The notes: generated from the letters alone by a model not told the origin. 41,819 nucleotides of DNA from a virus (IMGVR_UViG_2721755721_000002); one strand, 5' to 3'. Shown: positions 175 to 18,263, numbered from the stretch's first letter. A program made the numbers and translations.

Positions 175-227
175 GGGCGGCAGAGCAGTCACGGAGTAAA
201 ACTGATACCGCCAAACGTCACCAGAAA
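175..227 (-). ncRNA. dicF: DicF small regulatory RNA (53 nt), followed on the minus strand by a T-run
   Basis: Reverse complement of 175-227 reads TTTCTGGTGACGTTTGGCGGTATCAGTTTTACTCCGTGACTGCTCTGCCGCCC, which I recognise from memory as E. coli DicF; it lies downstream of ydfA/B/C-like ORFs as in the Qin dicB operon. Not database-verified. Confidence 0.75.
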
Positions 228-7208: not shown

Positions 7209-7485
7209 GTCTTTGTACGACCATGCGGGCCTTATTGTCTTGCTATTGCTCTTATGGTTCGCCTTTCTGATTGATTTCATATTGGCGAGGTGACGGGAGT
7301 TAAGTAGAATGGCTGCGGGTGCTTGAGGCTATCTGTCTCAGGCATGAACACCAAAGGCAGATAGAGAAAAGCCCCAGTTAACATTACGCGTCCTGCAAGA
7401 CGCTTAACATTAATCTGAGGCTCAATCTATGAACGGCAAATCTAGGTTAGCCTCTTACGTGCCGAAAGGCAAGGAGAAGCAGGCT

Positions 7486-7641
7486 ATGAAGCAGCAAAAG
7501 GCGATGTTAATCGTCCTGATCGTCATCTGTTTAACCGTCATAGTGACGGCACTGGTAACGAGGAAAGACCTCTGCGAGGTACGAATCCGAACCGGCCAGA
7601 CGGAGGTCGCTGTCTTCACAGCTTACGAACCTGAGGAGTAA
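7486..7641 (+). CDS. hok: Hok/Gef-family type I toxin (51 aa)
   Basis: MKQQKAMLIVLIVICLTVIVTALVTRKDLCEVRIRTGQTEVAVFTAYEPEE is near-identical to HokD/RelF as I remember it; AAGGAG RBS; the track ORF 7429.. is an in-frame upstream extension. Confidence 0.85.
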   Translation: MKQQKAMLIVLIVICLTVIVTALVTRKDLCEVRIRTGQTEVAVFTAYEPEE

Positions 7642-10406: not shown

Positions 10407-10482
10407 GGCCCTTTAGCTCAGTGGTGAGAGCGAGCGACTCATAATCGCCAGGCCGCTGGTTCAAATCCAGCAAGGGCCACCA
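10407..10482 (+). tRNA. tRNA with CAU anticodon (Ile2-lysidine or Met type), encoded CCA
   Basis: Cloverleaf by hand: acceptor GGCCCTT/AAGGGCC, D-stem GCTC/GAGC, anticodon loop CTCATAA, T-arm GCTGG-TTCAAAT-CCAGC. Confidence 0.8.
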
Positions 10483-10489
10483 TCACATA

Positions 10490-10566
10490 CCGCCATTAGC
10501 TCATCGGGATAGAACGCCAGCCTTCGAAGCTGGTTTCGCGGGGTTCGAGTCTCCGATGGCGGTCCA
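10490..10566 (+). tRNA. tRNA-Arg (anticodon UCG), encoded CCA
   Basis: Acceptor CCGCCAT/ATGGCGG, anticodon arm CCAGC-CTTCGAA-GCTGG, T-arm CGGGG-TTCGAGT-CTCCG. Confidence 0.7.
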
Positions 10567-10579
10567 TTATCGGTATTCT

Positions 10580-10656
10580 GCGTTTTTAGCTCAGCCGGAC
10601 AGAGCAATTGCCTTCTAAGCAATCGGTCACTGGTTCGAACCCAGTACAACGCACCA
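10580..10656 (+). tRNA. tRNA-Arg (anticodon UCU), encoded CCA
   Basis: Anticodon arm ATTGC-CTTCTAA-GCAAT, T-arm ACTGG-TTCGAAC-CCAGT, D-stem GCTC/GAGC; one acceptor-stem mismatch. Confidence 0.7.
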
Positions 10657-11422: not shown

Positions 11423-11623
11423 TTTTTTTGTTTGCTGTTTATTAAAAACACTTCTGCATGGTGAATCCCCCTGTGCGGTGGGGCAATCAGCAAGAAGGAA
11501 TATGGGGTAATCGCGGATTCAGGTGCTGATACTGAATTCACCGGGAGGCACCCGGCACCATGCTTTGCCACAAAAGTGTTATTTCTGTTTTTCTCAAACT
11601 ATCATCGTTATCCCTTTATTTTC

Positions 11624-15682: not shown

Positions 15683-15796
15683 ATGAAAGGCATTGAAGTG
15701 GAGACGCCAGCCAGTCTGGATTTAACAAGAGCGGCAGCTTTTGCCATTCGTATTGTGGCCATTGCTGTTCTGGTCTGGGCAATCCGTTGGTGGTGA
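15683..15796 (+). CDS. Possible small membrane protein (37 aa) between endolysin and Rz
   Basis: MKGIEVETPASLDLTRAAAFAIRIVAIAVLVWAIRWW; GAGG about 11 nt upstream; stop 1 nt before the Rz ATG. Below track cutoff; speculative. Confidence 0.25.
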   Translation: MKGIEVETPASLDLTRAAAFAIRIVAIAVLVWAIRWW

Positions 15797-15797
15797 T

Positions 15798-16265
15798 ATG
15801 AACCGTGTTCTGTGCGTGGTTATCATTGTCCTGCTGGTGGCCTGTGGTGCGCTTAGTCTGGGGCTGAATCATTACCGTGATCACGCCATCATCTACAAAG
15901 AGCAGCGCGATAAAAAAGCCAGTGAGCTGGAGCTGGCGAACGCGACAATTACTGATATGCAGATACGCCAGCGTGATGTCGCTGCACTTGATGCCAGATA
16001 CTCGAGGGAATTAGCCGATGCGAGAGCTGAAAATGAAACTCTGCGTGCTGATGTTGCCGCTGGTCGTAAGCGCCTGCGGATCAACGCCACCTGCTCCGGT
16101 ACCGTGCGTGAAGCCACCGGCACCTCCGGCGTGGATAATGCAACCGGCCCCCGACTGGCAGACACCGCTGAACGGGATTATTTCATCCTCAGAGAACGGC
16201 TGATGGCAATGCAGAAGCAACTGGAAGGAGCACAGGAATATATCCGTACCCAGTGTATACCGTGA
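15798..16265 (+). CDS. Rz: Rz i-spanin
   Basis: MNRVLCVVIIVLLVACGALSLGLNHYRDHAIIYKEQRDK... parallels lambda Rz; internal Met of track ORF 15741... Confidence 0.8.
   Translation: MNRVLCVVIIVLLVACGALSLGLNHYRDHAIIYKEQRDKKASELELANATITDMQIRQRDVAALDARYSRELADARAENETLRADVAAGRKRLRINATCSGTVREATGTSGVDNATGPRLADTAERDYFILRERLMAMQKQLEGAQEYIRTQCIP
16033..16203 (+). CDS. Rz1: Rz1 o-spanin lipoprotein embedded in Rz in another frame
   Basis: MKLCVLMLPLVVSACGSTPPAPVPCVKPPAPPAW...; lipobox VSAC; proline-rich. Confidence 0.7.
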   Translation: MKLCVLMLPLVVSACGSTPPAPVPCVKPPAPPAWIMQPAPDWQTPLNGIISSSENG

Positions 16266-16730
16266 TGTTTTGTTATGAAGGTGTTACTGGTAACGTTAAG
16301 GTAATTTAACAAAGAGTCAGTTCCGGACTTTATAGTGTGCTCAGTTCATGGCCAAAAACGATTTCTGTGATAAATATTTTGAATATTATTTACAGGTAAA
16401 TGGAGTGGGGCACATGGATAGAAATATTACAATAGAGAATGAAGTATATGCCCGTATTGTATGGGCAGAGAAGGCAAAAACACGGTAATTCCGTGTGTTG
16501 CCATGATACCTGATTGGCAGAATAGTTGTTTGGTTTTGAGTATATAGTCAGCGTTTTTTGTTCAGTAATTGCTCCCTCAAAAAATAATAAAATAAGGTGA
16601 TTATTTTTGTTTATTATTTAGTTTTTTTTGTGTGTTGTTTTATTGTTTTTGCGTGGTTTGTTTTTTATTGTTATTTCATTAAGGGAAGGTAAATTCAGGA
16701 TGGCAGTCTGTAGATAATCGGAGGTCACTT

Positions 16731-17045
16731 ATGCTACATGATCACGTGGCAGAATGTCTGGAGAAAAAAGGACTGTACCGGAGAGCAGCTGAACGATGGG
16801 CAAAAGTGATGGTACAGCTAAGTGATGACCAGAAAAGAAAAGTGGCGGCACAGAAACGAGCAGAGTGTTTGCGTAAGGCGCGCCGGACTCCGGTTTCACC
16901 GGTGAACCTGACCGAAATAAAACAAGCGGTCAACAGACTACATTCTGAGTTGGGAATGGGATTTGAAGAGCGGCGGGTATTCCGACGATATAAAGGGACA
17001 GGAGAACAGAATACGTCCGGAAACGCGCGGTCAAAAAAATGCTAA
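16731..17045 (+). CDS. pch: PerC/Pch-family transcriptional regulator
   Basis: 104 aa; LEKKGLYRRAAERWAKVM matches the PerC-family signature as I recall it; AT/T-rich upstream region; GGAGG RBS. Confidence 0.6.
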   Translation: MLHDHVAECLEKKGLYRRAAERWAKVMVQLSDDQKRKVAAQKRAECLRKARRTPVSPVNLTEIKQAVNRLHSELGMGFEERRVFRRYKGTGEQNTSGNARSKKC

Positions 17046-17080
17046 AAAATATCTGAGAGAGTTATTGCCTGTTACCATAA

Positions 17081-17108
17081 GAAAAAGCGACTTTAGTGGT
17101 CGCTTTTT
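17081..17108. terminator. Bidirectional terminator between pch and the downstream minus-strand gene
   Basis: AGCGAC-TTTAGTG-GTCGCT hairpin flanked by an A-run 5' and T-run 3'. Confidence 0.55.
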
Positions 17109-17126
17109 GTGTCATATATAAGTCGT

Positions 17127-17351
17127 TTAAGTAAACCTGTCTGAACAGGTGCTCTGGTCGTGTTTGTCTTTGTTGGGTACAAATTGAGCATGTTTTTCAT
17201 TAATTAATCTTCTTCTGCAGGCTTCAATAACCCACGCTGAAAAATTACCTGAACCTTTCAGGTCAAGAGCGATGTTAATTTGTTCAATTATCTGGTTTGG
17301 AAATCGGATGTTGCGGGTTGTTGTTCTGCGGGTTCTGTTCTTTGATGACAT
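17127..17351 (-). CDS. YlcI/YnfO-like small protein (DUF3950-like), next to cos/terminase
   Basis: 74-aa ORF next to the Nu1 homologue, as ynfO/ylcI lie next to nohA/nohD in K-12 prophages; assignment by position and size. Confidence 0.4.
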   Translation of the reverse strand: MSSKNRTRRTTTRNIRFPNQIIEQINIALDLKGSGNFSAWVIEACRRRLINEKHAQFVPNKDKHDQSTCSDRFT

Positions 17352-17753: not shown

Positions 17754-18263
17754 GTGGCTACGCAGACTGAAGTTGCCAGGCATTTAAGTCTGACCGATCG
17801 CCAGCTTCGCAGATTGCAGAAATTGCCGGGTGCCCCGATATCGAATAAGCGAGGGCAACTGGATCTGGATGCCTGGCGCGATTTTTACATATCGTATCTG
17901 AGGAGAAGTAAAAACGATGTGCCTGATGGCGATAGCGAAGACGACTATGAGGAGAAATTGCTTATTGCCAGATGGGAACTGACAGCAGAACAGGCTGTTA
18001 CACAGCAGTTAAAAAATGAGGTGTCAAAAGGAAAACTTATTGACACCGGGTTCTGTATTTTTGCCCTCAGTAAGCTGGCAATGGCGTTATCCAGTACGCT
18101 TGATTCCATCCCTTTATCCATGCAGCGACAGTTTTCTGATTTAACACCGCGCCATCTTGACCATCTGAAAACCCTTATTGCTAAGGGGGCAAATCAGTGT
18201 GCGCGGGCAGGGGATAAATTACCGGATTTACTCGATGAATATATCAGAGCAACAACTGAATAA
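17754..18263 (+). CDS. nu1: Terminase small subunit (Nu1-like), GTG start
   Basis: N-terminal HTH and the block TGFCIFALSKLAMALSSTLDSIPLSMQRQFSDL parallel lambda Nu1. Confidence 0.85.
   Translation: MATQTEVARHLSLTDRQLRRLQKLPGAPISNKRGQLDLDAWRDFYISYLRRSKNDVPDGDSEDDYEEKLLIARWELTAEQAVTQQLKNEVSKGKLIDTGFCIFALSKLAMALSSTLDSIPLSMQRQFSDLTPRHLDHLKTLIAKGANQCARAGDKLPDLLDEYIRATTE

Follow-up and report, generated by a model that had tools for sequence, protein, structure and literature searches.

The pchA cassette, a lambdoid prophage moron of attaching-and-effacing Escherichia coli, and the T/G-rich tract upstream of its gene

To judge from its sequence, the PerC/Pch-like gene of the window (the whole stretch of 41,819 nucleotides of viral DNA that was analyzed) is the pchA allele itself and not merely a relative of it, and it very probably forms part of the pchA cassette, a moron located between Rz and ylcI/cos in a lambdoid prophage of attaching-and-effacing E. 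coli. The feature, a member of the group 1 Pch regulators carried by a moron of a lambdoid prophage, is already known, and its gene, product, function, and several layers of its regulation have been published; for a genome scan, its value resides in a correct annotation and not in a discovery. For specialists, the concentration of variation in the T-rich, presumed promoter tract, changes in T-run length included, is mildly new, and so is the fact that a single prophage physically links dicF, pchA, and an nleB-family effector. The presence of pchA marks the window as part of a virulence-associated prophage of attaching-and-effacing E. coli, and the gene acts as a master switch that controls type III secretion in EHEC and related pathogens.

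Identity of pchA and organization of its cassette

The elements of the cassette and its neighbors, in window coordinates, are as follows:

15741–16265, plus strand: Rz (Phage_lysis PF03245, E=1e-48), with Rz1 embedded; its stop codon ends at 16265
16246–17215 (approximate, ~960 bp), plus strand: pch 'moron' cassette, delimited by pairwise alignment with the pch-less lambdoid phage YYZ-2008
16266–16575, plus strand: conserved upstream segment, unannotated, found only linked to pch
16578–16690, plus strand: T/G-rich, C-depleted hypervariable tract, defined by composition and comprising the most variable bins of the cassette; putative promoter/upstream-element region of pch
16643–16671, plus strand: candidate sigma-70 promoter TTGTTT-17 nt-TATTGT, with the -10 hexamer at 16666–16671 and a predicted start at ~16678
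16720–16724, plus strand: Shine-Dalgarno (SD) sequence GGAGG of pchA, read from the sequence, 6 nt before the start codon
16731–17045, plus strand: pchA coding sequence, ATG start, 104 aa, PerC family, group 1 Pch
17082–17108, both strands: bidirectional intrinsic terminator AAAAAGCGAC-loop-GTCGCTTTTT, of the form A5-stem-T5, between the convergent pchA and ylcI
17754–18263: Nu1 (PF07471)

The original prediction described a 104-aa PerC/Pch-like product with the sequence KGLYRRAAERW, and this description is borne out: the open reading frame is present, the motif occupies residues 13–23 of the translation of 16731–17045, and the product matches the Pfam PerC family PF06069, of which PerC of typical EPEC is the founder, over profile positions 1–89 of 90 (E=3.8e-44; 149.3 bits, cut-off 22.6), which contradicts the lack of a PerC-domain hit named beforehand as evidence against the assignment. 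The alignment proposed as a check was made with the Sakai reference loci pchA (ECs_1091, Sp4), pchB (ECs_2182, Sp11), and pchC (ECs_2737, Sp14), and with plasmid genes that carry a PerC-family annotation. The product agrees with Sakai PchA (NP_309118.1) in all of its 104 residues (100%), whereas it shares 99% identity with PchB (V6L), 98% with PchC (V6L and V58M), and approximately 46–47% with plasmid PerC over residues 2–88 (tblastn, E~1e-17). At the nucleotide level, the window and the Sakai pchA locus, compared from the Rz end through the upstream region, the SD, and the gene to the terminator, differ at 2 out of 931 positions. The product is deposited in RefSeq as WP_001303878.1, 'PerC family transcriptional regulator', and the UniRef name for the exact protein sequence is 'PchABC family transcriptional regulator'. 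The Pfam PerC match, the UniRef name, the identity with PchA, and the near-identical Sakai DNA together assign the locus to the pchA allele of group 1 pch. No frameshift or altered start was seen in the coding sequence. A sequence search of the PDB returned no relatives of the protein, and a single-sequence AlphaFold model, with four helices and a disordered tail, reaches a pLDDT of 51, too poor for fold comparison.

The limits of the cassette are evident from the comparison with YYZ-2008, where homology stops in the last Rz codons (~16245) and restarts inside ylcI/DUF3950 (~17215), leaving therefore an insertion of ~960 bp that corresponds to a classical moron. The whole cassette is absent from all 50,697 deposited phage genomes, and the records of Stx phages match its flanks only. 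The pch gene is present in 673 of 5426 complete E. coli genomes, with a median of 3 copies, and the 310 bp located upstream (16266–16575) are found in exactly the same 688 records and 673 genomes, always with at least 95% identity and never annotated; both elements therefore travel as one unit, and the upstream segment presumably carries regulatory sites and/or an upstream promoter. In addition, a stretch of 861 bp (16270–17130) is 100% identical in many EHEC/aEPEC genomes (O26, O145, O111, and others), and the terminator hairpin, which appears in the minimum free energy (MFE) fold, is identical in the Sakai pchA, pchB, and pchC loci. The cassette is one conserved unit of ~960 bp that brings along an AT-rich upstream region of its own and has a bidirectional terminator.

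The window is a lambdoid prophage, and its first 25 kb reach at best 99.2% identity to any complete genome in the collection. Its 5' part comprises DicF and the ydfC-ydfB region, YdaS/YdaT, hokD/sok, RusA, Q, and three tRNAs; the middle part contains a TerB-like gene, an STnc100 sRNA, a nanS-like esterase, holin, lysozyme, Rz/Rz1, and pchA; and the 3' part ylcI (minus strand, DUF3950), Nu1, terminase, portal, head and tail genes, Lom, a tail fibre, and an NleB-family effector. The local order holin-lysozyme-Rz-pch-ylcI-Nu1-terminase is the same as in Sakai Sp11 and Sp14, where pchB and pchC are carried in the same cassette and at the same prophage position. The Sakai pchA locus departs from this standard Rz-pch-ylcI-Nu1 arrangement, as its lysis-pch segment is inverted and flanked by IS629/ISEc8.

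Several features of the early and middle parts of the prophage can be mentioned here. A hok/sok type I toxin-antitoxin locus lies at 7317–7640 on the plus strand (sok RNA, 110 bits; hokD annotated in the closest genome). Three tRNA genes follow Q at 10407–10653 (plus strand), annotated as Ile, Arg, and Arg in the closest annotated genome, and they make up the ileZ-argN-argO set that is characteristic of lambdoid prophages of the Stx type and their relatives; no stx gene follows them, and instead there come a TerB-like gene, interrupted by a stop codon in the closest genome, and a nanS-like esterase. The Rfam family STnc100 matches at 11427–11599 on the plus strand with 100.8 bits, and this match looks like a member of the group of ~222-nt sRNAs of the PR' moron site, since it contains the sequences complementary to the Northern probes for EcOnc04 and EcOnc05, two prophage sRNAs bound by Hfq (Tree et al. 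2014).

The T/G-rich tract upstream of pchA

The region between Rz and pchA (16266–16730) measures 465 bp and has a GC content of 33.3%, compared with 52.3% for the whole window, in agreement with the original claim of a very AT-rich upstream region of about 460 bp with T-tracts. The bias culminates at 16579–16678, whose GC content of 0.18 is the lowest of any 100-bp window in the entire 41.8 kb, and the base content of 16600–16680 is 70.4% T, 16.0% G, 11.1% A, and 2.5% C. Runs of four to eight T are located at 16604–08, 16622–29, 16638–41, 16646–50, and 16661–66. The further claim that these T-tracts are phased did not hold, as their centre-to-centre spacings are irregular (19.5, 14, 8.5, and 15.5 bp) and the AA/TT signal in 16590–16690 has no excess power at 10–11.5 bp, a value equaled by 25% of the shuffles. 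Over the wider interval 16540–16730, the AA/TT signal has a weak peak at 11.5 bp (0.003 within the band and 0.03 with any period allowed). The curvature prediction suggested for the same interval does place bends at ~16580 and ~16640 above the 99th percentile of the window, with another at ~16390, but the profile is noisy and comes from a home-made, unvalidated wedge model.

The tract also stands out by its variability. Among 53 unique sequences, obtained from 80 IMG/VR loci with a 99–100% identical protein, the pch coding region is essentially invariant and 16266–16575 varies little, whereas 16575–16700 is several-fold more variable than its flanks. In 33 distinct IMG/VR variants, the T8 run at 16622–29 is shortened to T6 or T7 and the T6 run at 16661–66 to T5, one variant lacks 42 bp (~16620–16660), and from TTTTTATTGTT (16662 onward) up to and including the SD, the sequence is invariant again. 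Likewise, the substitutions that separate pchA, pchB, and pchC are concentrated in 16578–16690, where pchB and pchC differ extensively from the pchA of the window; pchB has, moreover, a C-to-T change adjoining the SD. The T/G tract is the sole fast-evolving part of an otherwise almost invariant cassette.

The tract would correspond to the upstream and core promoter region of pch, ending at the -10-like TATTGT, and we infer that it represents the fast-changing promoter region of pchA and not a new element. All three genes, pchA, pchB, and pchC, retain the hexamers TTGTTT and TATTGT around a variable spacer, and TATTGT is changed to TATTAT in two divergent variants; the predicted start at ~16678 would give a leader of ~53 nt. 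This candidate ranks only fourth by PWM score among several weak plus-strand sigma-70 candidates, with starts at ~16343, ~16533, ~16678, and ~16702, and a consensus promoter scan flagged only TTGCCA-17-AATAGT at 16498–16526. A plasmid paralogue with 78.6% identity has an unrelated far-upstream region and yet a T-rich tract with a GC content of 0.20 at -162 to -62, whereas distant PerC-family genes in plasmid operons have no such tract, which points to a feature of stand-alone pch promoters. Three GGA motifs precede the pchA start (16684–16686, 16698–16700, and 16721–16723, the last one inside the SD) and are invariant in 33 out of 33 variants; the trio may recall CsrA binding sites, with about one GGA expected by chance in the last 50 nt.

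Two alternative or additional roles for the tract concern its effect on transcription. According to the original prediction, phased and intrinsically curved T tracts nucleate H-NS, which silences the pch promoter until a counter-silencer acts. The AT content of the region (66.7% over 465 bp, with the 18%-GC core), the weak 11.5-bp periodicity over 16540–16730, and the three predicted bends from the unvalidated model are in line with this reading, and H-NS in Sakai is reported to occupy ~189 phage-like loci and to lie near all the known prophage virulence genes (PMC4764244). Nevertheless, the 10–11.5-bp phasing is absent precisely inside 16600–16680 (p~0.25), the strand asymmetry (70% T versus 11% A) is not required for H-NS binding, and there is no good match to the high-affinity motif TCGATAAATT, whose single upstream occurrence, with 2 mismatches at 16303–16312, is at chance level (35 such matches window-wide versus 31.5 expected). 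In the literature, where H-NS appears as what Pch counteracts at LEE1 (PMC4456613, PMC10714755, PMC6265319), no paper reporting H-NS binding to pch or hns-dependent expression of it was found, nor anything usable on a mapped pchA start site. Taken as a whole, the nucleation reading falls short of an even chance, while H-NS silencing of the pch promoter as such is plausible on sequence grounds, in view of the AT-richness of the tract, which would make H-NS binding plausible. Another reading regards the tract as a mutational tuning knob, in which slippage in the T runs alters the spacer or the geometry of the UP element and sets the expression of each copy and strain. The shortened T runs, some of which change the candidate -35/-10 spacing among the 33 variants, and the local excess of variation would fit such a role, as would the differential regulation of pchA and pchB by LrhA (PMC4456613, PMC13012123); homopolymer length differences in draft assemblies can, however, be sequencing artefacts, and the reading depends on a predicted promoter position, so that we consider it rather unlikely. 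For the T-run length variation itself, slippage-based tuning and assembly artefact are both possible.

The other two alternatives find much less room. The minus strand of the tract could encode a C/A-rich sRNA, e.g., a GcvB-type sponge such as AgvB, or an antisense RNA of ~100 nt extending from ~16577 to a hairpin at 16496–16480, given that the minus-strand sequence AACAACACACAAAAAA resembles a GcvB target and that a promoter-like site (16613 to 16584) and a terminator-like hairpin with a U tail (16496 to 16480) are present on that strand. AgvB and AsxR, however, are located at the PR' moron site and not at this one (PMC4104026), and the window lacks their conserved 3' sequence. Of the 55 Hfq-bound Sakai EcOnc sRNAs, not one maps to the region upstream of pchA (1183680–1184145). 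The predicted promoter would leave out the C/A-rich part, pchB and pchC share a mismatch at one base pair of the hairpin, and no Rfam match appears even at E<=10; all this makes a minus-strand RNA highly improbable. It is hardly credible that the prophage is defective and its pchA copy a decaying remnant without function: collections of isolated phages lack pch-bearing prophages and the Sakai pchA segment has been rearranged by IS elements, but the coding sequence is intact and invariant across the 53 variants, the SD, the terminator, and the upstream segment are all intact, and the prophage of the window retains complete lysis, terminase, head, and tail genes. The fast-changing promoter region remains the preferred reading of the tract, and differences in its sequence and T-run length may underlie the distinct regulation of pchA, pchB, and pchC.

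Three candidate elements in this region were discarded. An AgvB-like anti-sRNA in the tract was rejected on account of the site mismatch, the absent 3' sequence, and the lack of any EcOnc RNA upstream of Sakai pchA (PMC4104026); nor was an anti-sRNA of the AgvB/AsxR type found elsewhere in the window. The antisense terminator at 16480–16496 was set aside as weak, with a break in pchB and pchC that is not compensated; the hairpin itself has a GC-rich stem of 6 bp (ACACGG-AATTA-CCGTGT) and a minus-strand U tail and is intact in the pchA allele. Finally, a 46-aa open reading frame at 16348–16488 is not a gene, having no Pfam or NCBIfam match, no annotation in RefSeq, and non-synonymous changes in pchC.

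Regarding the inputs to pch transcription, LrhA and Lrp with butyrate (PMC4456613) as well as NtrC/sigmaS (PMC10714755) have been reported, LeuO is named alongside the Lrp/butyrate input (PMC4456613, PMC10714755, PMC13012123, PMC6265319), and the SOS response raises the expression of group 1 pch (PMC6265319). SOS induction fits the geometry of the locus, since pchA is co-oriented with the Q-dependent late operon and a scan found no plus-strand terminator between Rz and pch; the induction could be explained by transcription reading through from the late operon under Q antitermination.

Function and translational control of pchA

Group 1 Pch proteins are activators of LEE1/ler (PMC4764244, PMC4456613). 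Pch activates the LEE1 promoter only under repression by H-NS/StpA/Hha/YdgT and lowers the H-NS occupancy there, and it boosts the activation, dependent on Ler, of the remaining LEE promoters and of non-LEE effector genes (PMC4764244). The window itself contains no LEE. This published role would apply to the PchA of the window, as it is the identical protein: bound to the LEE1 (ler) promoter region, PchA would relieve the silencing by H-NS/StpA/Hha/YdgT, and Ler, once switched on, would lead to the production of the type III secretion system and non-LEE effectors.

Upstream of this step, a translational control of pchA has been described by Melson and Kendall (2019), as relayed in later papers (PMC7769764, PMC7873438, PMC13138055): the SD of pchA is sequestered by an anti-SD sequence within the coding sequence, and under low oxygen DicF pairs at the anti-SD and frees the ribosome-binding site. 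This published post-transcriptional layer, i.e., the SD:anti-SD structure together with DicF, was missed by the original prediction. The elements of the window that may take part in it are the following:

172–227 or, more narrowly, 175–226, minus strand: DicF sRNA gene, which shares its prophage with pchA and matches Rfam RF00039 over the full length (76.7 bits)
16819–16830, plus strand: candidate anti-SD A, UAAGUGAUGACC, inside the coding sequence; predicted partner of the SD region with p~0.6 (MFE and partition function)
16886–16892, plus strand: candidate anti-SD B, GACUCCG; predicted SD partner with p~0.3
16811–16834, plus strand: candidate DicF site overlapping anti-SD A; pairs with DicF nt 1–25 at -23.4 kcal/mol, not clearly above chance
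16875–16888, plus strand: candidate DicF site adjoining anti-SD B, the best one for the unpaired 5' end; DicF nt 2–16, -15.4 kcal/mol, reached by 6% of shuffles

In the model of the full-length mRNA, the G, U, and C positions flanking the SD are paired with a probability of 0.8–0.95, and the predicted partner of the SD shifts with transcript length; compared with shuffles, the fold of the leader and early coding sequence is not more stable (z=-0.49). The DicF sites derive from scans of the pchA mRNA in 24-nt windows; whole-mRNA RNAduplex predictions for DicF were discarded, as unrestricted interior loops render their -48 kcal/mol duplexes meaningless. In these models, the sequence of the window appears consistent with the published DicF/anti-SD mechanism, with two candidate sites. 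Translation of pchA would accordingly be blocked in the mechanism by pairing of the SD with the anti-SD in the coding sequence and released by DicF under low oxygen. With the riboregulation described by Melson and Kendall (2019), in the form relayed by the later papers, the window shares the predicted SD sequestration, the predicted DicF complementarity by a candidate anti-SD, and the DicF gene; the difference is that here dicF and pch can be observed directly as neighbors on one prophage and two candidate pairing sites remain. The regulator gene dicF and its target pchA are physically linked on one prophage, and in Sakai, a DicF gene is carried by both Sp4 (pchA) and Sp11 (pchB), whereas no match at the gathering score was obtained in Sp14 (pchC).

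Related systems and linked virulence genes

A close counterpart of PchA outside prophages is PerC of typical EPEC, encoded by perABC on the EAF plasmid, which has the same domain and, like Pch, activates LEE1/ler (PMC4764244, PMC4456613). The genetic setting differs, as perC comes third in an operon on a plasmid and pchA is a stand-alone prophage moron, and so does the requirement, since EPEC can express the LEE without PerC under many conditions while EHEC requires Pch (PMC4764244). With respect to its organization, the cassette resembles other lambdoid morons, such as bor and lom of lambda or stx, which likewise insert, between conserved phage modules, an additional gene equipped with a terminator and a control region of its own, the pch promoter being in this case a predicted one. 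Like them, pchA is co-oriented with the late operon and hence also expressed on induction (PMC6265319), but the product that it supplies regulates transcription of a distant pathogenicity island and is neither a surface protein nor a toxin.

At the 3' end of the window, an open reading frame of 326 aa (40839–41819, plus strand) matches the Pfam family of SseK/NleB type III effectors (E=3e-181) and ends at the last base of the window; it follows Lom (38354–39013) and a tail-fibre gene (39072–40391). The prophage could be viewed as a self-contained virulence-control package, made up of an sRNA activator (dicF), the target that it controls at translation (pchA), and a secreted effector of the regulon (the nleB-family gene), in which the slippage-prone T runs of the pch tract act as a heritable rheostat for the output of each copy, a view that we regard as improbable; to our knowledge, neither the linkage of dicF, pchA, and nleB as a selected unit nor the T-run rheostat has been established.

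Distant PerC-family genes, with 37–42% identity, were also found inside operons at three plasmid loci (L093, L094, and L095). In two of these loci (L093 and L095), ssb immediately precedes the gene, and in L094, from a Salmonella plasmid, it is located two genes upstream of hha, which encodes an H-NS co-repressor. These positions offer a hint of anti-silencing by PerC-like proteins as a general plasmid-establishment function.
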